Assembly (NCBI GenBank): GCA_903939515.1
Contig: CAJAHH010000015.1
Location: 7,058 to 71,057 of the forward strand
From: an uncultured Verrucomicrobiota bacterium
Lineage (GTDB): Bacteria; Verrucomicrobiota; Verrucomicrobiia; Limisphaerales; UBA9464
DNA: 64,000 nt
Reading direction: 5' to 3'
The notes under the pieces are model-generated. The model was not told where the DNA came from and ran no database searches. It saw only the letters and a program-made list of their open reading frames with translations. Every line of letters begins with the position of its first letter. The stretch's first letter is position 1. A program made the position numbers and the translations under genes. Below are positions 7,431-16,371 of this stretch, piece by piece.

Positions 7431-7505
7431 GAACGTTTTAAAAGTGTTTTGATTTCTAACACCTTGGTGCCAGCCAATCGTCGGCGATCGGATTCGCCGA
7501 GCGCC

Positions 7506-8480
7506 CTAGGCCTGAGTTACCACCTTGCGAGGCATCTGCTCGTAAATCACTCGGAGGGAGCTCTGCACGGCATGATTTTCGAGGGGTTGATCTTGGAGTT
7601 CCAGAGGCATCCATTGCCTGAGACGGGCCTCGCTCATCCCGCCCAGCCAGAGACTGAAGGCGAGATCCGACTCTCGTCGATCCAGATATTTCTGGCGCGC
7701 CCGATATGCTTCCAGTCGTTCGATGTTCTGCCGACGAACGGTGTCCGCCAGAGTCTCAAAGTTTGCGGGCGGTCCATAAGAACCGGTCTTGAGGATCTCC
7801 ATGAATCCATTGAGCAATCCCATTCTCATGGTTTTGCGGTTGACCCGAATATCAAAAGCAAAGGCTTCGATGGATAATTGCAATTCATCGAGACTCACAT
7901 TGCCCCATTTCCACACCTGCCGAAGATGACTCGGAGCAAACATCACCTGTTCTTGATGCAGTATTGAGCAATCCACTTCCAGCCATTCGTCAGGAATCTC
8001 CCGGGAGTTTTGACTTCCCCTAGGACGAGAGCCGAAACCGGCCACAGGATCGCTGGCATACTCAGGCCGACGGCTTGGGAATTCTGCGCCCGCCAAAAGG
8101 GGGGACCCTCCTCCCAAGCGGACGGTTGGCGAGGGGGTCAAGGGCCAGGCTCCGTCGGCGTGAGCATTCTGGATTTCCTGGAGCAATCCCGTGGCGATGG
8201 AGTAACTCACCCACCCGCCACGGCCGCGCTTGGATTGCGCCACCGAAATTAATCCCTCCCGAACCATGCGTGCCAAGGTTGTTTCGACGGTTCGCAAAGA
8301 CGCCCCCACTTGGTCGGCCAATGATCGAACGTTCAGCGGATCGGTCGACTCCGAGGCGAGGCTTTTTCGCGAGGCGCTGATGATTTCCATCAATCTCAAC
8401 TTCAGCCCAACAAGACCCAACAGTTGGGTGTTTGTTGTGCTTTTAACCATCATTTCGATGGGCGTTTGTTGGGTATTCAT
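7506..8480 (-). CDS. Winged-helix DNA-binding protein, plasmid/phage replication-initiator-like
   Basis: HTH plus wing: LNVRSLADQVGASLRTVETTLARMVREGLISVAQSKRGRGGWVSYSI. It is followed by a low-complexity linker and a helical C-terminal domain. The Rep role is inferred from architecture and context. Confidence 0.55.
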   Translation of the reverse strand: MNTQQTPIEMMVKSTTNTQLLGLVGLKLRLMEIISASRKSLASESTDPLNVRSLADQVGASLRTVETTLARMVREGLISVAQSKRGRGGWVSYSIATGLLQEIQNAHADGAWPLTPSPTVRLGGGSPLLAGAEFPSRRPEYASDPVAGFGSRPRGSQNSREIPDEWLEVDCSILHQEQVMFAPSHLRQVWKWGNVSLDELQLSIEAFAFDIRVNRKTMRMGLLNGFMEILKTGSYGPPANFETLADTVRRQNIERLEAYRARQKYLDRRESDLAFSLWLGGMSEARLRQWMPLELQDQPLENHAVQSSLRVIYEQMPRKVVTQA

Positions 8481-9039
8481 CGATTCCAAAAACGTTTTTA
8501 TTGATTTTTAAAACCCGACACAACCTGTTTGTAGGGTTTCAGAATCATCGCTCGTGCCAACGGGCGTGAGGCATCCGATGGCCATCTCGGGGAAATCTGG
8601 ACCCACTTCCACTCGAACTAGTGGCGGCCATTGTCCGTCGCTTTTCTCCACCCAAGTCCTCCTCCGGATATCCTCCCTTCGAGGCCAGTTTTCAACCCGC
8701 ATTGCCCAGCCAAAAAAACGTTCCCGTTTCAACCAACCGACCCTCTTTCGCCCTCTCGCCATCACTGAATCGACGGATATGCCCCTACCCCAAAAATTCT
8801 CACACCGTCCCGAGGCCAGCCTGCTGAGCCCCGCATCCCATTCTTGGTCGCCAAACGGATCGAGCTAACCAAGATAACCTATAACACCCACCGGGCCGAA
8901 TGAGCGGGTGTAATCCTGTTACTTCCCGCGAGCCACTGTGGCAACCCACTGAAAATTTGGAGTGAAATCACTGCTGGAATCATTTTTTGAATCCACCCCC
9001 TGTCTTTGCAGAAAATGGCCGGACCTTTAATAGCTCTCA

Positions 9040-9330
9040 ATCGGTGAGACTACCTCCACTAATTCAATCAATAACAACGTTGGAAAACCCTATTAGAATA
9101 AATCGATAAAATAAATAACCAACGCCACAAAATTTGATTTTTATTAAAACAATAAATCACATCCTGTTGGTTGAAAATCATAGGTTTTTCTTATTTTAAA
9201 CACGGCGCGGTTCAATATGTTAAAAATCAAACCACAGCAATGCATAAATATAAAAACTAGAAACAGTGACTCATTTAAATTCTAAATTATCCAATGATCA
9301 ATTCGCAAAAATCAATTAACCACCCTGAAT
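9040..9330. promoter_or_regulatory. Strongly AT-rich non-coding tract (candidate origin/unwinding element or promoter region)
   Basis: Hand count gives 65 G+C in the 240 nt of 9061-9300 (27%), against about 60% elsewhere. The ORF track shows nothing between 8868 and 9695. Confidence 0.6.
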
Positions 9331-9603
9331 TCGAACCTTCAATCCGACTCAACGTTTACCGAAGCATTTCACCCGGTTCTAAATTCAAAACCGGTGAAGT
9401 CTTTTGAGTCTAAATTCTGCGCCAACGAATCCCGGAATTCACGTGCCTGAGGCCCTGAATGCGTCAAAAGAGGGCTAAACCAGCCCAAAGGGTCGCAGCA
9501 GCAACCCGTTCACTCACGTCGCCACCATCATCACCCAGAAATCGCATCAGACTCCGGCCAAAAAGGGACAAGTTTCTTGAATTTTAGTATCTGCATTCAA
9601 TGC

Positions 9604-9679
9604 AATAACTCTAGGGCTAAGTCTATAAGCTAAGTCTCCAGAGTTAAATCTCTAGGACTAAGTCGCTAAGCCTGAGTCC
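9604..9679. repeat. Array of short degenerate direct repeats (consensus GCTAAGTCT)
   Basis: AATAACTCT 9604, GCTAAGTCT 9616, GCTAAGTCT 9629, GTTAAATCT 9643, ACTAAGTCG 9657 and CCTGAGTCC 9671 (12-14 bp period), plus GCTAAGCCT 9665. Confidence 0.65.
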
Positions 9680-9694
9680 GAACGATTCAATCCA

Positions 9695-11677
9695 CTAAGA
9701 GCCATTCGAAGTCTGAAACCCATCAAATCGGAAGGAATAAGGCGTGTCTGACGCTTTAATTTTAGGAAAATCGCGGGAGAGTTGAGGCGGAATCACTACT
9801 GCTGGCGTAGTACGAGCCTTCTCAGAAACACCAGACACACGACCACCCGCCGGATTGCTCAATTGGCTCGGGAAACGACCTTGTTCCTTCCAAATCAACA
9901 TCAGTGGCCGCCAATCCGAGGTCATCCCAACGCGAAGCTCCGGGTCTTTAGACCGCCATTGCCGGTGCAGAAAGGCCCCGTCTGTCGCCAATAACCCCAT
10001 GGCGATGGCTTGGCGCTCAAACGCCTCTTGGGAGGCCTTAGAATCGATTTCTGGCGGATCTGAAGCCAGTGCCCGAGGCTGCAGCTGCGCAAGTCTCCGG
10101 GGTAATGAGGTCGGTATCTGAACCGTTTGAGTATTTCGATTCATCGTTTCCGGCTTCTTTTCAACCACCGAATCAAGGGTGGTTGCTCCACCCTTACGAG
10201 TTGCTGCCGACTTTCGCCCACCCGCTGCCGACTTCTCCTTCCACTGCGTCAGACGCTCTTTCTGCTGCTGAAGGTCAAAATGGGTCAGTTCTTGAGGGTT
10301 TTGGGTCGCATGAAACATTCTCAACACCGAGGCAACAACGGTGGTTGAAGCACCCTTTCCAACCAAGCGTGCTGCTTGCTCTGGATCCTTGGGGACCGAA
10401 CCATTCTGCCAGCAATAAGAAAGCAGACGAATGTAAACCCCCTCTTCCTCCAAGCTCATCATCTGGATTTGCTGATTGGCCAAATACTCGGAAGGTGAAA
10501 ATGAAAACCCGGATGATTTCATGGATTTAGTGCGCTGAAAGGGCGTTTGTGGGGACGAAGGATACTGGGCACGAGAGGACGGGGCGGATATCTCTACCCT
10601 CTCAAATTCTGAATCTGCTTGATCTAATAGAGAATCCGATGGCTTGTGCTGGAGAAATTGAAAATCTAGATGAAAGCCGTGACCCAAGAAGCGGATATCT
10701 AGGTCAGTTTCTTTAACAGAAGACACAGACGAGTGATTTTGTAAGACAACAAAATTACTTTGAGCAATTTCTTTAAATCCAGACGCTGGAATAACTGAGG
10801 TCGAGGGCTTCCAATTTGTGACAGAGGGACGGATTGCTGTAGGCGTGGGGGGGTGAGAATGGATCCAAACTTCAATTTCTAAACGCATACGCCGATTGAA
10901 ATCTCGTATGCCGACCATTATTTCTAAGACAGTCTGGGTGCGGCGATCGGAGGATACAGAAGGAGGGGTAGCGATTGTTGGGCGACAACGCCAAACTCGG
11001 AATCGGTCACGGATCCGCTTGCGGTTGAGAGATACCAGCATCGCCGCACCCATGAGCAATAGCCCTATCCAAGCTTTGAAAGCAAAACGCCCCTGCCCCT
11101 CTTGAGACTCTCCCCCAGTGATATTCTGCTCAGCCTTTGGGAGGATCGGGGCCAAAGCACCTTCTGCTACAGGGCTAACTGTCTTCGCAAGATTCTGTGA
11201 ACTGATTGCCGCTGGCACTGTTACCGACTGAGGTACTGAGGGTTGCACTGAGGCAGCGACGGCTGCTTTGGGCGCCATCCGTGGGTTCTCGGAGACGATG
11301 CGGCGGTTTTGACTTTGAACAATTTGGGAAGCTACGAACGGTGAGGTTTTCTGAACCGCTGGATGGGACGGGATCACCAAGACCGACCCGGTCCGGATTC
11401 GATGAAGGTTCCCAGCCTGGAAGACCCCTGGATTCTCGCGTAGGAGCGCCAGGAGCATTTGATCCATGGTGACCGAATCCGGTTTGTAGCGACGAGCAAT
11501 ACGGTAGGCCGTTTCCCCCTCCTGAACCGTGACCCGTTTGGGGACAGAGGGGGTATTGGTCAGCGCCCCTGTACCAGAGGTGGATCCGATCAGCCCGTTG
11601 CACCCTCCTATCAGACACAAATACGCAATCAGCAGTTTTGGTAAACCACTGGTGGCCCATTTGGTCACAAGATGCAT
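9695..11677 (-). CDS. FimV-type LysM + TM protein fused to a YdaU/DUF1376 phage replication domain
   Basis: N-terminal hydrophobic segment; FimV core VTVQEGETAYRIA..VTMDQMLLALLRENPGVFQAGNLHRIRTGSVLVIP; TM AWIGLLLMGAAMLVSL followed by NRKRIR. From M at 10522: FSFSPSEYLANQQIQMMSLEEEGVYIRLLSYCWQNGSVP...KSAAGGRKSA. Confidence 0.7.
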   Translation of the reverse strand: MHLVTKWATSGLPKLLIAYLCLIGGCNGLIGSTSGTGALTNTPSVPKRVTVQEGETAYRIARRYKPDSVTMDQMLLALLRENPGVFQAGNLHRIRTGSVLVIPSHPAVQKTSPFVASQIVQSQNRRIVSENPRMAPKAAVAASVQPSVPQSVTVPAAISSQNLAKTVSPVAEGALAPILPKAEQNITGGESQEGQGRFAFKAWIGLLLMGAAMLVSLNRKRIRDRFRVWRCRPTIATPPSVSSDRRTQTVLEIMVGIRDFNRRMRLEIEVWIHSHPPTPTAIRPSVTNWKPSTSVIPASGFKEIAQSNFVVLQNHSSVSSVKETDLDIRFLGHGFHLDFQFLQHKPSDSLLDQADSEFERVEISAPSSRAQYPSSPQTPFQRTKSMKSSGFSFSPSEYLANQQIQMMSLEEEGVYIRLLSYCWQNGSVPKDPEQAARLVGKGASTTVVASVLRMFHATQNPQELTHFDLQQQKERLTQWKEKSAAGGRKSAATRKGGATTLDSVVEKKPETMNRNTQTVQIPTSLPRRLAQLQPRALASDPPEIDSKASQEAFERQAIAMGLLATDGAFLHRQWRSKDPELRVGMTSDWRPLMLIWKEQGRFPSQLSNPAGGRVSGVSEKARTTPAVVIPPQLSRDFPKIKASDTPYSFRFDGFQTSNGS

Positions 11678-11853
11678 ACAAGAGCAGGTTCGGAGGCTCG
11701 GATTGAAACCTCAAGATTCGGGCCACTAAACGGTCAAAAGACCCGTGATAGCACATTCACTGGAGGCGGACTCAGAACCCACTTGGGGCTTGCTAGCACT
11801 TTTATTCCATCCCTTCAACCTGTTTATGGCGAGGCCCTACGGCTACCCCAGGG

Positions 11854-13254
11854 CTACGACAGGTTGGAAGGGTGGTTGAAGGGTGGTGCTTCGCTGCTGG
11901 GTGTTGCTGGGGCCTCACCCGTCGATTCGGCCGAGGGAGGCTCTGCGGCGATCAGACTAGGCTGCGCTTCGGGTGGAACAGGTAGAGATTCCAAGGCTGG
12001 GCCCGCGTTGCGAGCAGGCGTTGGCGGCACTGAGGACCGAGCCAAAGCCTTTACCTCGCCACGAATCTCGCGGTTGATCGCTCGGATCTCGCGCATGAGG
12101 TCGAGTTTGACCTTTCGCTTCGGATCCCCGGATTTGACTCCTGGATCCACCGCTCCCACTCCGGAGACGAATTGCAACTTAACCCCGCCCGTCGTGCGCA
12201 TGAGCTCGCGCTGACGTTCGTTCTCCTTCAGTAGAGCTGCCAGACGCCGAATCTTCTGCTCCAGCATCTGGATCTGATCGTCTTTGAGGGCGAGATCCTT
12301 TTCCAACGGTCGATCCGTGTCGGCCTCCAAGAGTTGGCGGACGCCCCGAAGCAGGTCACGGCTGTGGCGGACGTCCTGGAATCGTCCGTCAAACAACCTC
12401 TCAAGGACCTTCTGAAGGCTGCTCTCCAGGTCTGCATCTTCCAGGGTACGCGGAGTCTGGGGTGCCTCCACCGACGCGGGAACTTTGCGCAGTCGCAGTG
12501 CCATGCGCAGGGTGCGGCGCAGCGCCCGCAAGCCAAACAGAAGGACCCGCACGGGTCCGGACTGGCGAGGCGAGGCCCGCCGCCATCGAGCCGGTCCGCC
12601 CGGGGGCGTCCATCCTGTTGGTGCAGTTTCCGGAAAGGCCTCTCCACGGTACAACCGCTGGGGCAGTTCGGGCCGCTGGGGCAGTTCGAGCAGTTCGGAA
12701 TCCAGTTCATCCCGGAAAGCGCGCCGCGGATTCTTCCGACGACGAGTCCGGGGCGTCAGCAACGGTCCCGAAGGTCGCACCATGCGCGGTGCCCCGGATT
12801 CATGACGGGTTTTCCACGCTTCCACGACCGGATCCACCACGGGTGCCGGTTTGGACGATTTCCGGTGAAGGCGCCCATGGATCGACCGTCGGAGCCAGCG
12901 CAATGCGATTTCGCCAGAGTCCGGGCGACGGCGCGGCGGTTTTGACAAGTCGGCGATAACATGCCCATGCGCTTTGAGCCAGGCAGTGAGTGCCAAGTCC
13001 GGAGGCGGTGTCTCTGAGGCTCGCAGCACCGGGCGTTTGCGGCGGCGCCGCTCCAGTACCCGGGCTAGAGAACGGAGAATTTTGAAGCGCAACCGCAGGC
13101 CGCCGTATTTCCAAAGCCAGCGGAGGAGGTCGGAGGCTTTTGAACCATCGGTCTCCGGCCGATAGCCGCCCACCATCATCCGTCGGATCAACTCCGCCCT
13201 CAGCCATACGGTGGGACGGCCTGATTCCAGCCGATGATGTTGGGTGCCACCCAT
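11854..13254 (-). CDS. Hypothetical protein: Arg-rich amphipathic N-terminus and coiled-coil C-terminal domain shared with its neighbours
   Basis: 466 aa ORF co-oriented with mamK; contains LEQKIRRLAALLKENERQ...PGVKSGDPKRKVKLDLMREIRAINR. Confidence 0.7.
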   Translation of the reverse strand: MGGTQHHRLESGRPTVWLRAELIRRMMVGGYRPETDGSKASDLLRWLWKYGGLRLRFKILRSLARVLERRRRKRPVLRASETPPPDLALTAWLKAHGHVIADLSKPPRRRPDSGEIALRWLRRSIHGRLHRKSSKPAPVVDPVVEAWKTRHESGAPRMVRPSGPLLTPRTRRRKNPRRAFRDELDSELLELPQRPELPQRLYRGEAFPETAPTGWTPPGGPARWRRASPRQSGPVRVLLFGLRALRRTLRMALRLRKVPASVEAPQTPRTLEDADLESSLQKVLERLFDGRFQDVRHSRDLLRGVRQLLEADTDRPLEKDLALKDDQIQMLEQKIRRLAALLKENERQRELMRTTGGVKLQFVSGVGAVDPGVKSGDPKRKVKLDLMREIRAINREIRGEVKALARSSVPPTPARNAGPALESLPVPPEAQPSLIAAEPPSAESTGEAPATPSSEAPPFNHPSNLS

Positions 13255-13333
13255 AGGATTTCGCCAGGGATGTCTCCGTGGTGCCCAAATGTCCCGAAAC
13301 CGATCTCAACGAGGGATTTCCCCGTCGCCAGAA

Positions 13334-14401
13334 TCAGGAAACCAAACCGCTCATTCCCTGCGAGGCCAGCTCTCGGTTGGTCCGGAACTCAGCCCAGAAC
13401 TCCGTCGGCATGTCCAAAGCGATCTTCAAGGCACCATTGGAACCGGCAAATTGGGGCTCCTCAACTAAGGTGACTTTGCCGCCACCGTACTCGCTCAACC
13501 CCTTTTCAATGGCTCGTCCGAGTCCGCGAATCTGGCTGCCGCCGCCGCCCAACAGGATGTTATTGCGCATCTTGGCCTGGAACTCGGGATCGTAGGTGGC
13601 GATGAGGTCCTGCAGTGCCTGGACCGTCGGCGGTACAATGGTGTAGCAGGCCGAATACACCTGTTCGGTCAGGTTGAAGTTCGTCGGCTTGCCACCGACC
13701 GGCAGGGTCTCTTCGACCTCGTCCATCTTCGGGCTGACCGAGGCGTGCCGTTCCTTAATGGCGCGCACCATATTAATGGAGAACTGAACTTCAGGAAACT
13801 TGTCCTGAATGAGCTTGGAGAGGGACTGATCGATGGAATCACCGGCCACGTAATGGGTACGCTGATCCTCAGCCGAGGGCATCGACCCGTGAACACGGCA
13901 AAGGTCGGTAGTGCCCGCGCCGATGTCGATCACCAGCGTGTCATCCAAGAAATCCAGGCCGTAAGCCACAGCAAAAGGCTCCGAGCACACGATCACCGAG
14001 TCGATGCAGTTAGCAGCGGCTTCCAGGATGGTGGCCTTGCCCGCCACACTGGCTTGGGCCGGAGCACCGATCACCGCGTAAATGACCGCATCGGCCGGAG
14101 CATTGATTTCGCGCACCACGTATTCCAACAAATCGCGAATCGCCTTCTTTACGGGCTCAGGGTCCACGACGCCCTGCTGCTTGACCGAGGCGCCTGCCAG
14201 GGGCCGATACAAATGAACGGACATGCGGTTTTCCAGCGCTTCCTGTCCGTAAATGATCTCCCGACCTCCCAATCGCTTTAGGGCGACATGGTCCTTCGGG
14301 TAGCCAACATACGACCAAACGGTCTTTCGAAAGCCATTGGACGCGGTGATGGATGTCCGACTGGTTCCTAAATCAATTCCGACAAAAATGGTTTCAGCCA
14401 T
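13334..14401 (-). CDS. mamK: MamK-family actin-like ATPase
   Basis: GIDLGTS, VGYPKD, AVIGAPA.AS, SEPFAVAYGL, VIDIGAGTTD, P.AEDQ.T..AG..ID, GGGSQIRGL and GALKIA.DMP..FW are collinear with Magnetospirillum MamK as I recall it (VVGYPKD, AVIGVPARAS, SEPFMVGYGL, GALRLAEELPPQYW). Likely start ATG 14401. Confidence 0.88.
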   Translation of the reverse strand: MAETIFVGIDLGTSRTSITASNGFRKTVWSYVGYPKDHVALKRLGGREIIYGQEALENRMSVHLYRPLAGASVKQQGVVDPEPVKKAIRDLLEYVVREINAPADAVIYAVIGAPAQASVAGKATILEAAANCIDSVIVCSEPFAVAYGLDFLDDTLVIDIGAGTTDLCRVHGSMPSAEDQRTHYVAGDSIDQSLSKLIQDKFPEVQFSINMVRAIKERHASVSPKMDEVEETLPVGGKPTNFNLTEQVYSACYTIVPPTVQALQDLIATYDPEFQAKMRNNILLGGGGSQIRGLGRAIEKGLSEYGGGKVTLVEEPQFAGSNGALKIALDMPTEFWAEFRTNRELASQGMSGLVS

Positions 14402-14654
14402 GAGACGCGTGTTGCTGGTAGTTTCTCCGATGAGCACAAAGGCTCAGAGGTGAATGCGTCAGCCAGCGCGCTGCCTTAAGATATTTTTTAGGATTTACCA
14501 AAAGAAATATTCAGCCTGGCCGTTGGGACCAGCAACGGTGCGCGAATTGCACCAAATCCAGGGTGCCGTGGATTTGGCAGCAGCCTTGGGGTCTGAAGAA
14601 CAGGGACGGCTCAAACCGAAGGGCACCGTCGGGGCCGCGGACCAACTCGGGCGA

Positions 14655-16247
14655 TCACGGTTGCTGAGTGACGGGAGCGACTCGGCCTTGGACGACCCGG
14701 TTAAAGTCACGAATCTCGATGAGCAACCGCAGTTTGAGGTCTCGCTGAGGGTCGTTGTCCTTGAGTCCCGGCTCAGACAAGGCCATCAGGAGCCATCGGT
14801 AGGATCGCGAGACGAATCCTTCTTTCCGATTTCGGCGCTCACTCTCTCCGATCAGGCCTGCCAGACGGCGGATCCTGCTTTCGAGTGCCTGCTCGAGGTC
14901 GCTCTGATAGGCGTGCTCCTTCCTCAAAGCGGCCATCAACCGTTCCACTTCGGCCTCTTCTTGGAGTCGCTGCCGTCGACCGGTTTCCGGAAGACTGGAG
15001 GCCGTTGCATCAACGGGCTTTGGAATCGGGACTCGCTGCGGAACAGCCGCCGGTCGGGATGCGCTGGGAACCACGACCGGCTTCAGCAATCGAGATGGCG
15101 GCTGAGAAACGGCCGGCGCCTTCGACTCTTCTGGAGCCAATTTCACTGGCATCGACTGGGTCTGAGGCACGATCGGTGTTTTCACCACAGGGATCGGAGC
15201 CGGATCGGGTTGCCGCACTGGATCAGGTTGCCGCACCGGATCAGGTTGCCGCACTGGATCAGGTTTCGGTTCTGATTTGGAAACAGGCTCTTTGGCAACG
15301 TCTGCCCGTTCATGAGGCTCCGTCGGCTGAGCTTTTTTTACTGCTCGGAACCACCCCCAGGCCACTGCCACCGCCAAAGCGGCAATGCCCAGCACCCATA
15401 GCCAACCTCCAAAGAATTCACTCGTCGGGGTGCGGTCGGCGGCAACAACGGGGGCCGACTGCGGCGATTCCGGTGCCAGTGGTGGTGATGGTTCAAGTGC
15501 CGGAGCAGCAGGCTCAACAACGTCCGTCATTGGGGACCGCACCGTCGAAGCCACAATTTTCTCGGAAACTCCACCACGGGTCAGCTCTCCGGGTGCTTTC
15601 CAAGTCAGCTCATTCTCAGTGTTCTGTGGCCGAAGGGCTTCCGCCTGAACGGGTTGAGCCAGGACTTCTACCCGATTGCTTCGGCCATTCAATGGCGTTC
15701 GAAACCTATCAGCCTGGGCCGCCCGGAAGGCTTCGTACTCCCGAATTTGCTCGGCGATGATCCGTCGGGCCTCGGCCAACGGGATCGCCAAGGCCATGCG
15801 TGCGTCGGGGATTTTTAAGACGGCACCGGCCGGCAGGCGATTGACATTGCCGCCCCCGAACACTTCCGGGTTCCGTCGCAACAGAGCCACGAGCATTTGG
15901 TCGAGCGACACCTCCGCCGGCAAACGCACCACGGCGATCTCGCTCGCCGTATCGCCAGGCTGAACCTCGATTTCTTCGCCTCGAGGCTCACCACTGTCAG
16001 AGGGGCGGGCTTCGGACCTGTTGGCAGGAGCTGAAGCCCTGAGGGCAGCCGGGGTGCCGCCATAACGTGTCTCTCGTGCAGGCGCAATCGCTGCAGATTG
16101 ACCGAAAACGCTCGGCAACCAGAGGAGCGCAGCACACCAAAGCCCCGCCCTGAGAGGAGAGGCCACCTTTCGATGGGATGCGTCGACAGACGGGTTCAGT
16201 GGCACCATGGCGGAGGGCTCGCTTGCGGCGAAATGACTCCAACTCAT
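14655..16247 (-). CDS. FimV-type LysM + TM + Pro-rich linker + coiled-coil domain protein
   Basis: Signal-like segment; FimV core VQPGDTASEIA...VSLDQMLVALLRRNPEVFGGGNVNRLPAGAVLKIPD; TM WLWVLGIAALAVAVAWGWF followed by RAVKK; C-terminal LESRIRRLAGLIGESERR...PGLKDNDPQRDLKLRLLIEIRDFNR. Confidence 0.8.
   Translation of the reverse strand: MSWSHFAASEPSAMVPLNPSVDASHRKVASPLRAGLWCAALLWLPSVFGQSAAIAPARETRYGGTPAALRASAPANRSEARPSDSGEPRGEEIEVQPGDTASEIAVVRLPAEVSLDQMLVALLRRNPEVFGGGNVNRLPAGAVLKIPDARMALAIPLAEARRIIAEQIREYEAFRAAQADRFRTPLNGRSNRVEVLAQPVQAEALRPQNTENELTWKAPGELTRGGVSEKIVASTVRSPMTDVVEPAAPALEPSPPLAPESPQSAPVVAADRTPTSEFFGGWLWVLGIAALAVAVAWGWFRAVKKAQPTEPHERADVAKEPVSKSEPKPDPVRQPDPVRQPDPVRQPDPAPIPVVKTPIVPQTQSMPVKLAPEESKAPAVSQPPSRLLKPVVVPSASRPAAVPQRVPIPKPVDATASSLPETGRRQRLQEEAEVERLMAALRKEHAYQSDLEQALESRIRRLAGLIGESERRNRKEGFVSRSYRWLLMALSEPGLKDNDPQRDLKLRLLIEIRDFNRVVQGRVAPVTQQP
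15202..15265. repeat. 18-bp coding tandem repeat, about 3.5 copies (PDPVRQ)
   Basis: Units of ggatcaggttgccgcact start at 15202, 15220 and 15238, with a partial copy at 15256. Confidence 0.9.
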
Positions 16248-16371
16248 TTTAGCCTCGGGTTATTAGGTCCTTGCTTGTCGCACAACTGAAGCTCGACGAC
16301 AGACGGCACTCTGGACCCGACTGCAGATGAATTGGACTAGAGACCGACGCTGCCCGAAGGATTTCGGCGAA

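Follow-up and report, generated by a model that had tools for sequence, protein, structure and literature searches.

A MamK-like actin encoded with predicted envelope-anchored partner proteins in a freshwater genus of Verrucomicrobiota

Actins of the MamK family polymerise with ATP, according to the accessible parts of two reports (10.1101/817700; PMC11929497), and MamK itself interacts with several Mad proteins in two-hybrid tests, as far as the available text of a third report goes (PMC12748827). The MamK-like saltatorellin of Saltatorellus ferox forms filaments in E. coli and M. gryphiswaldense (bioRxiv 10.1101/817700), and the main text of that preprint, in the form available, contains neither the word "operon" nor the word "upstream". 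Two further systems bear on attachment to the cell envelope: CorR, in the accessible text of its description (10.1101/2025.06.27.661541), is an adaptor that uses an amphipathic helix to bring its actin to the membrane and a C-terminal peptide to bind that actin, and FimV, again from a partial source, binds peptidoglycan by its LysM and acts as a polar landmark (PMC5285504). The locus treated here lies in a stretch of 64,000 nucleotides from an uncultured Verrucomicrobiota bacterium (assembly GCA_903939515.1, contig CAJAHH010000015.1; hereafter the window, meaning the whole stretch), where a gene for a MamK-like actin is accompanied by genes A, B and C, of which A and B share a domain called X and C perhaps has one helix of it, and by a fifth gene, D.

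A preliminary description of this DNA had proposed an actin moored to the cell wall for the positioning of a non-magnetosome cargo. That proposal stands in so far as the gene association is conserved and no mam cluster was found, but its emphasis shifts: as read from the sequences compared, the old and conserved core is the actin together with an X-family partner of the kind found in Planctomycetota, and what is new, in one freshwater genus of Verrucomicrobiota, is the fusion of X to a FimV-type LysM and a membrane anchor. With a probability of roughly 0.55, the block would encode a filament of MamK-like actin that is moored to the cell envelope by adaptors of its own, and its job would most likely be cortical organisation, that is, shape, polarity or the placing of a non-magnetic cargo.

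The actin, domain X and its carriers

The window is part of a 159-kb contig in an assembly of 4.71 Mb and 160 contigs, estimated to be 95.9% complete. Genes A, actin, B and C are four co-oriented open reading frames (ORFs) on the minus strand, found where and in the order in which they had been described, intact and under purifying selection; the ratios of nonsynonymous to synonymous divergence (dN/dS) given below are pairwise counts against the window from five or six relatives, out to a synonymous divergence above 1, so that some of the deep values are saturated. The features of A, the actin and B are as follows (aa, amino acids).

14655..16247, minus strand: gene A, 530 aa, with an N-terminal hydrophobic segment (probable signal peptide), FimV-type LysM, periplasmic linker, membrane segment, proline-rich linker and C-terminal X
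15744..15953, minus strand: FimV_core LysM of A (aa 99-168), 60.7 bits against a cut-off of 43.45
15348..15416, minus strand: predicted transmembrane helix of A (aa 278-300), from hydropathy, with basic residues on its C-terminal side
14679..14987, minus strand: domain X of A (aa 421-523), predicted to be helical; its last part is the conserved terminal helix of the family
13334..14401, minus strand: MamK-like actin, 355 aa from a conserved ATG at 14401, with profile matches and phosphate-loop motifs
11854..13254, minus strand: gene B, 466 aa, with a basic, Trp/Arg-rich N-terminal half, amphipathic helix, domain X and variable tail
12496..12552, minus strand: basic amphipathic helix of B (aa 235-253), candidate for membrane binding (hydrophobic moment 0.72, net charge +5)
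12046..12441, minus strand: domain X of B (aa 272-403)

The actin ORF as listed starts at a GTG at 14437 (13334-14437), and the conserved start lies 7 residues ahead of the first of the nucleotide-binding motifs of the actin fold, which were located in the protein and are invariant in 59 relatives. Its dN/dS is 0.01-0.03, and its best solved relative is 5jyg (E 4.7e-74), aligned over aa 16-350. As to family, the best curated match is MamK, as had been proposed, but at 385.7 bits it narrowly misses the cut-off of 400 (NF040964), and the second is BeeR (NF053558), at 207.8 bits against a cut-off of 530. The NF040964 cut-off is passed by 99 of 401 genomes sampled from Planctomycetota (the phylum of G061), and therefore the model is not specific to magnetosomes. 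The window's genome has matches to mreB, murG, ftsZ and parB, those of murG and ftsZ being just or somewhat below their cut-offs; with murG, ftsZ and mreB in the genome, a wall would be present to bind and the actin would not be substituting for MreB. In another genome (G192, L108:1073-3367) a typical MamK-like actin is followed in tandem by a protein of 764 aa whose C-terminal domain is a diverged MamK-like one (168 bits).

Domain X is common to A and B (41% identity over 104 aa, E 5e-13), and its profile matches these two alone among the 41,840 stop-to-stop frames of the genome, the next frame being at E 0.17; the "partial domain X" once attributed to C comes down to a single 18-residue helix, whose likeness is weak. 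At E 0.001, X gathers 642 representatives among 1.84 billion sequences, and its terminal helix holds the sole invariant residue of alignment A1. Searches against Pfam and NCBIfam returned scattered matches of coiled-coil type, with any one family matched by at most 7 of 37 and 6 of 96 members; there was no consistent match among PDB sequences (best E 0.035), none to any Mam model or other curated family, and a probability of 0.2% against a DUF1376 alignment.

Compared across genomes, X appears as the C-terminal part of an undescribed partner protein that is encoded just upstream of such actins. A genome scan gave 78 loci, of which 8 are near-identical Verrucomicrobiota, 2 are more distant and 68 are others mostly labelled Planctomycetota; in 60 of these 68 the gene immediately upstream of the actin bears X, in 7 the upstream sequence is too short and in 1 there is no such gene. 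A second sample, made of every second row of the 150 matches listed (of 199) and sharing a few genomes with the first scan, comprises 75 loci, with the partner upstream in 50 by an iterated model and in 44 by the un-iterated one, 6 too short to tell and 19 without it. Among the same 401 Planctomycetota genomes, a MamK-like actin at E 1e-40 or better occurs in 148 and the partner core in 117. The planctomycete partner consists of a weak PilZ-like head in some members, a low-complexity linker and a conserved core of about 260 residues with X at its end; A and B keep the X, and the PilZ-like head and the N-terminal part of the core are replaced. That only X has been kept, and joined to two envelope anchors of different kinds, suggests that X is what binds the actin and that the action takes place at the envelope.

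The partner family has variants of its own. In L119 and L120 (G331, G374) one actin is preceded by two tandem partner-family genes; in L053:4496-7945 the partner is fused to two response-regulator receiver domains in a protein of 1149 aa, the sequence there having a masked stretch; in L115:5746-6486 partner and actin have near them, on the other strand, a gene for a tyrosine-autokinase-like ATPase; and in L109:4649-5383 and L116:2694-3374 short upstream genes carry, with weak scores, two copies of a helix like the terminal one of X, in the manner of a repeated short binding motif.

In B, the X domain (dN/dS 0-0.08) follows a strongly basic half, with an isoelectric point of 11.95 and eight Trp over aa 1-260, which bears out the basic N-terminus ascribed to it. 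The amphipathic helix (dN/dS 0-0.28) would be the element that binds the membrane, and in four distant B-type proteins a similar helix is the top-scoring window (moment 0.78-1.02). B is the partner type common to other Verrucomicrobiota-type loci: L038, L043, L247 and L250-L257, whose actins are 70-80% identical, have the actin and then a B-type gene, with no LysM. In L247:1382-7050 the pair (actin 80% identical) stands directly after a flagellar cluster (fliA, motA, motB, fliD-like) and in the same direction, an arrangement absent from the other loci inspected.

In A, the X domain (dN/dS 0.10-0.28) is joined to a LysM (dN/dS 0.04-0.18) through a membrane segment. Both A and C have, after a LysM over the FimV_core cut-off, one strong hydrophobic segment (Kyte-Doolittle 19-mer 2.11 and 1.85) and then basic residues, so that the LysM and membrane layout attributed to them is found, and since the basic residues of A lie C-terminal of its membrane helix, its X is predicted to be cytoplasmic. 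The likeness to FimV/HubP anchors holds for the LysM core and the membrane segment but ends there: FimV_N (PF25800) and the C-terminal TPR/FimV domain have no match in A or C, while the true FimV P0340 shows FimV_N and a weak TPR, and A and C, judged by this domain make-up, are not FimV/HubP landmarks. For the LysM of A there are 64 clusters of near homologues, of which 62 keep LysM and X (the other two are shorter, at 367 and 411 aa) and 55 have a strong hydrophobic segment between them; after these, among the best 120 of 594 matches, the list jumps to FimV of Comamonadaceae (Variovorax, Acidovorax, Polaromonas, Rhodoferax), 51-63% identical. None of 56 FimV proteins from outside contains X, and none of the 150 best X representatives contains a FimV LysM. 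The linkers drift, with dN/dS mostly 0.4-0.9, and a short proline-rich tandem repeat in the cytoplasmic linker of A (window 15200-15265) ranges from about 1 to 8 copies across relatives, which would alter the length of the arm. Purifying selection is strong on LysM, X and actin, and the grafted domains are retained.

Extent, spread and remaining genes of the block

The unit is larger than the four genes of the preliminary description, for it includes an AT-rich gap and gene D and measures 8.9 kb.

7431..16371, minus strand: whole block (A, actin, B, C, gap, D), whose flanking genes abut in genomes without it (empty sites L274 in G006 and L275 in G001)
9695..11677, minus strand: gene C, 660 aa, with a hydrophobic N-terminus, FimV-type LysM (aa 55-126), membrane segment (aa 199-217), X-like helix, linker and fused DUF1376/YdaU
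10874..10927, minus strand: X-like helix of C (aa 251-268), weakly supported
9695..10522, minus strand: C-terminal half of C (aa 386-660), a whole protein of DUF1376/YdaU type
8490..9694, no strand: intergenic stretch, poorly conserved, 45% GC, with a core of 29% GC at 9050-9330
7506..8489, minus strand: gene D, winged helix-turn-helix (HTH), resembling replication-initiator-like proteins

At the empty site L274 the upstream neighbour of A and the downstream neighbour of D lie directly against each other; at L275 a GYF_2-domain gene directly precedes that same downstream neighbour, and in G020 (L269) a homologue of the G001 GYF_2-domain gene (54%) directly precedes A. Since these contexts agree, the unit is placed at 7431-16371. 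A-actin-B-C and the Rep-like HTH gene are thus gained or lost as one block, and the empty sites may reflect either direction.

The window's actin, sought at E 1e-85, was found in none of 400 other Verrucomicrobiota genomes; within the genus it is present (about 385 bits) in 9 of 24 genomes, and in a tenth (G020) its start lies at the end of a contig. FimV_core occurs in 10 of 81 genomes of the family, all of them of this genus and all carrying the actin; the ten are kin, and therefore this is probably one event and not ten. The nearest relatives are metagenome-assembled genomes labelled Verrucomicrobiota, with actins 96-99% identical. Loci with actins at least 96% identical have the five genes (A, actin, B, C, D) to the extent that their contigs cover them, and only in these loci is a FimV LysM found beside the actin. 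The same order is seen in eight other species-level genomes, within the same limit, and in many metagenome contigs, all five genes being spanned in L193, L200, L201, L202, L203 and L243 (some of them near-duplicates), and the block is stable to a synonymous divergence above 1 (L203). The association, which had been described from this contig only, thus recurs in independent assemblies.

As to origin, the loci form a series, in which the Planctomycetota have the partner and then the actin. In the tree, nine window-like and B-type actins are one clade (SH-aLRT 99) within a Planctomycetota-dominated clade, and a tree of 28 rows, limited to the window, the phylum-labelled loci and eight loci with G handles and rooted on the group at 50% identity, agrees with the nesting (100/99). 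An approximately unbiased test against a Planctomycetota-only clade gave p 0.034, a weak result for a group named after the first tree had been seen. For L005, L007, L008, L021, L024 and L054 the species labels (Akkermansia muciniphila, Kuenenia) look unreliable, and phylum labels only were used. A transfer of the actin-partner pair from Planctomycetota appears likely, and the FimV-type anchor would be a late addition, drawn from a betaproteobacterial FimV.

Gene C carries the second FimV-type LysM (FimV_core 69.4 bits against 43.45; dN/dS 0.13-0.26). Its X-like helix is missed by the X profile and by a profile of the Planctomycetota helix; a helix profile made from rows of A and B type ranks it third in the genome (E 0.51), and one orthologue reaches E 3e-4. 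The DUF1376 assigned to its second half stays below the Pfam cut-off (PF07120, 24.8 and 29.1 bits against 30.1), but aa 386-660 resemble seven stand-alone DUF1376/YdaU members over their full length (35-40% identity), one of which passes PF07120, and the assignment is supported by this likeness. The same half resembles a PHROG "primosomal protein" (E 3.9e-11), and its nearest Atlas clusters are 90-100% viral (score 0.95); DUF1376 has been placed in a prophage type, in the part of that source available (10.1101/2021.06.02.446850). LysM, membrane segment and DUF1376 form one reading frame in 17 of the 17 loci that reach the start of DUF1376 (21 were listed, four end short and several are near-duplicates), and aa 386-500 have dN/dS 0.03-0.15. 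An internal Met, kept in the same 17 loci, aligns with the first residue of the stand-alone proteins, so that a free DUF1376 product is possible, and gene callers list short forms of C that start internally (P0391, P0392).

Gene D is weakly likened to plasmid proteins encoded beside ParA (22-24%, E 5e-10), and also resembles replication-initiator-like clusters, with dN/dS 0.10-0.22 in its two domains. It is present in 6 of the 24 genomes of the genus, all among the ten with the actin (several others break ahead of D), and with the window's D as query none turned up in 250 genomes elsewhere in the order. Neither D nor the second half of C had a match among phage or viral contigs. In the gap (8490-9694) there was no DnaA box, conserved motif, conserved repeat array, centromere-like or iteron array, nor any Rfam match at E 0.1, and relatives do not conserve the 22-nucleotide triple repeat seen at 9609-9671. 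Around 8541-8545, between C and D, the window's genome lacks some 100 bases that stand upstream of D in all six relatives.

Promoter-like and terminator-like sites do not exceed shuffled sequence (3 against 3.9 and 7 against 11.9). Sequencing runs recorded as RNA, chosen by means of the window's stretch, include 22 from lake, river and estuary samples that hold 21-35% of the sampled words, and contigs from four such runs cover parts of the block, one of them bridging B and the actin. Their summed depth peaks over the actin in X1, X3 and X5 and is zero there over 8807-9307, in contigs that cannot rank genes; in X2 the coverage is even, as expected of DNA. These contigs show that parts of the block are present in RNA libraries and say nothing of its level or of how it is organised in operons.

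What the block may do

If the moored filament is accepted, several steps would follow: (i) the actin, like others of its family, would polymerise with ATP; (ii) domain X, most likely through its conserved terminal helix, would bind the actin; (iii) B would hold X at the inner face of the membrane by its basic amphipathic helix; (iv) A would carry X on a long proline-rich arm across the membrane, and its FimV-type LysM would grip peptidoglycan and so tie the filament to the wall, by the example of FimV perhaps at poles or septa; (v) and finally, C would present a phage-derived DUF1376 protein, a probable DNA binder, on the same kind of anchor.

Several points weigh against this reading. The contact between actin and X is inferred, the signal peptides and topology come from hydropathy alone, and no imaging of cells of this clade was found. 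In 19 of the 69 informative loci of the second sample there is no detectable partner, and the actin can thus stand without one or with highly diverged ones; some of the 19 have short upstream genes that end in a similar helix, by eye and with weak scores. The partner counts are partly circular, since the profiles were built from loci of the first scan and the iterated one also from the second sample. Finally, close Verrucomicrobiota-type loci carry the actin and B only, and so A and C are not needed for the basic job of the actin.

The alternative that fares best, unlikely in our estimation, is a device for tethering or segregating DNA, in which the DUF1376 half of C and D would bind DNA (the gap or the chromosome), C would tie it to wall and membrane and the actin would move or space it by a logic like that of ParMRC; such a function would add to the envelope-moored filament and does not exclude it. 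The idea of a DNA cargo, raised in the preliminary description from the neighbouring replication-type genes, gains from C, whose second half is a whole and strongly conserved phage-type protein fused in every locus that reaches it, and from D, which moves with the block and has its likeness among plasmid proteins beside ParA. It loses by the gap, empty of any centromere-like or iteron array and of conserved motifs, and by the genome's own parB, which is over its cut-off; the link of C to the actin would be one weakly supported helix, and the kept internal Met, with the short forms listed by the gene callers, would allow the DUF1376 product to go free. DNA binding by DUF1376 is itself presumed. 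In the fullest form of the idea, which we hold to be speculative and rather improbable, the five genes would be a machine of three origins linking DNA to the cell wall through actin: C would hold DNA at a wall-fixed site, A would fix the filament to the wall and B to the membrane, and the filament would position or segregate the DNA. Its actin and adaptor would come from Planctomycetota, its wall anchor from Betaproteobacteria and its replication protein from a phage, by capture.

More doubtful than either is that the block is a domesticated relic of a mobile element, in which actin and B would work alone and A, C and D would have arisen by shuffling, each useful by itself and out of contact with the filament. 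The block is indeed gained or lost as a unit, its parts have three origins, the GC content at third codon positions is lower in C (0.52) and D (0.61) than in the flanking genes (0.66-0.76), and the loci of the L038 kind do have actin and B alone. But purifying selection maintains the X of A, which is hard to account for without an actin to which that X could bind; a search for an integrase, a terminal repeat or a viral match found none, and the stability of the block to deep synonymous divergence also speaks against it.

A magnetosome MamK with its mam cluster elsewhere in the genome would fit the curated family and the solved relative of the actin, but is very improbable. The search covered seven families (MamA, B, I, M, O, P and Q, with MamE outside it and no magnetotactic genome as control), and none came near its cut-off: MamA reached 65 of 200 bits (in much longer frames), MamO 70 of 800 and MamP 20 of 300, and MamB, MamI, MamM and MamQ had no match in the genome, the MamB and MamM models ringing on ordinary relatives in 13 of 14 control genomes and MamI in none. 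The statement that magnetosome genes are absent thus holds for the seven families, and no complete cluster elsewhere was found to account for the actin; MamK-like actins are, moreover, widespread in the sampled Planctomycetota genomes, and none of the mam families was found among 44 neighbours scanned from 14 of their actin loci. A chimeric assembly or chance neighbourhood, which the mixture of planctomycete-like, betaproteobacterial-like and phage-like parts in a 160-contig assembly might suggest and which the preliminary description had contemplated, is next to inconceivable, since the same order recurs in independent assemblies of eight other species-level genomes and many metagenome contigs.

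MamK-like actins are common in Planctomycetota, and the block is a natural experiment on their role in the absence of magnetosomes. If C binds DNA, a phage replication gene would have been recruited into the cytoskeleton of its host, and, were the DNA machine true, it would be an envelope-anchored actin system for positioning DNA of a kind not found in print, and the terminal helix of X would be a general binding motif for non-magnetosome MamK-like actins.

Comparison with known systems

The actin is of a known kind, like saltatorellin. The family of the partner and the fusion to a FimV anchor, on the other hand, were not found in print: a search lacking most subscription papers returned no paper that treats this family or describes a MamK-like actin with a LysM-anchored partner. 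Saltatorellin, in the available text of its preprint, is likewise a MamK-like actin of the PVC group (Planctomycetes, Verrucomicrobia, Chlamydiae) outside a magnetosome setting, beside MreB and without a mam cluster, as in the window's genome for the seven families searched. The C-terminal motif implied by its primer is present in 0 of 168 actins at least 60% identical to the window's and in 22 of 68 below 60%, so that the window's actin looks like, and probably is, a sister subfamily; pattern searches for the saltatorellin gene itself found none in 59 and 42 genomes.

BeeR (NF053558; PDB 8r2n) is also a MamK-related actin of Verrucomicrobiota, of unknown function in the accessible text of its report (PMC11929497), but it is only about 30% identical to the window's actin, which has none of its disordered N-terminal extension of 30-50 residues. 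BeeR-type actins are followed by a conserved small gene in 7 of 8 loci, and no X was found beside five such loci. A true BeeR (553.7 bits) is present in G007, a genome of the same genus without the window's actin. A 255-bit match to the MamK model, in genomes without the window's actin, was seen in G007:C43, G009:C224, G017:C105 and G018:C171 (confirmed as BeeR for G007) and in none of the ten block-bearing genomes.

The ParMRC partition system was considered and set aside, X having no match to a ribbon-helix-helix family and the locus no conserved repeat array. FimV/HubP proteins (TIGR03505) share with A and C a LysM core over the cut-off, a single membrane segment and a cytoplasmic interaction part, but in A and C that part is X or DUF1376, and FimV_N and the C-terminal FimV domain are lacking. 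The magnetosome systems, in which MamK works with MamJ, McaA or Mad coiled-coil proteins, have an actin of the same family (PDB 5jyg) and differ by their magnetosome genes, of which none was found here in the seven families. McaA, on the available part of its description (PMC9512821), has the layout of A, with signal peptide, periplasmic domain, membrane segment and cytoplasmic C-terminus, and is a landmark, but it uses a VWA domain where A uses LysM.

CorMR of Anabaena, as far as the accessible text describes it, differs in being derived from ParM/ParR, with a ribbon-helix-helix adaptor and no wall-binding or membrane-spanning anchor described. Like the actin and B, however, it joins a chromosomal actin to an adaptor, there for the control of cell shape, and the predicted layout of B is that of CorR, a functional parallel in which no sequence link was found for X. 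Thus CorMR offers the closest working model for the pair of actin and B.

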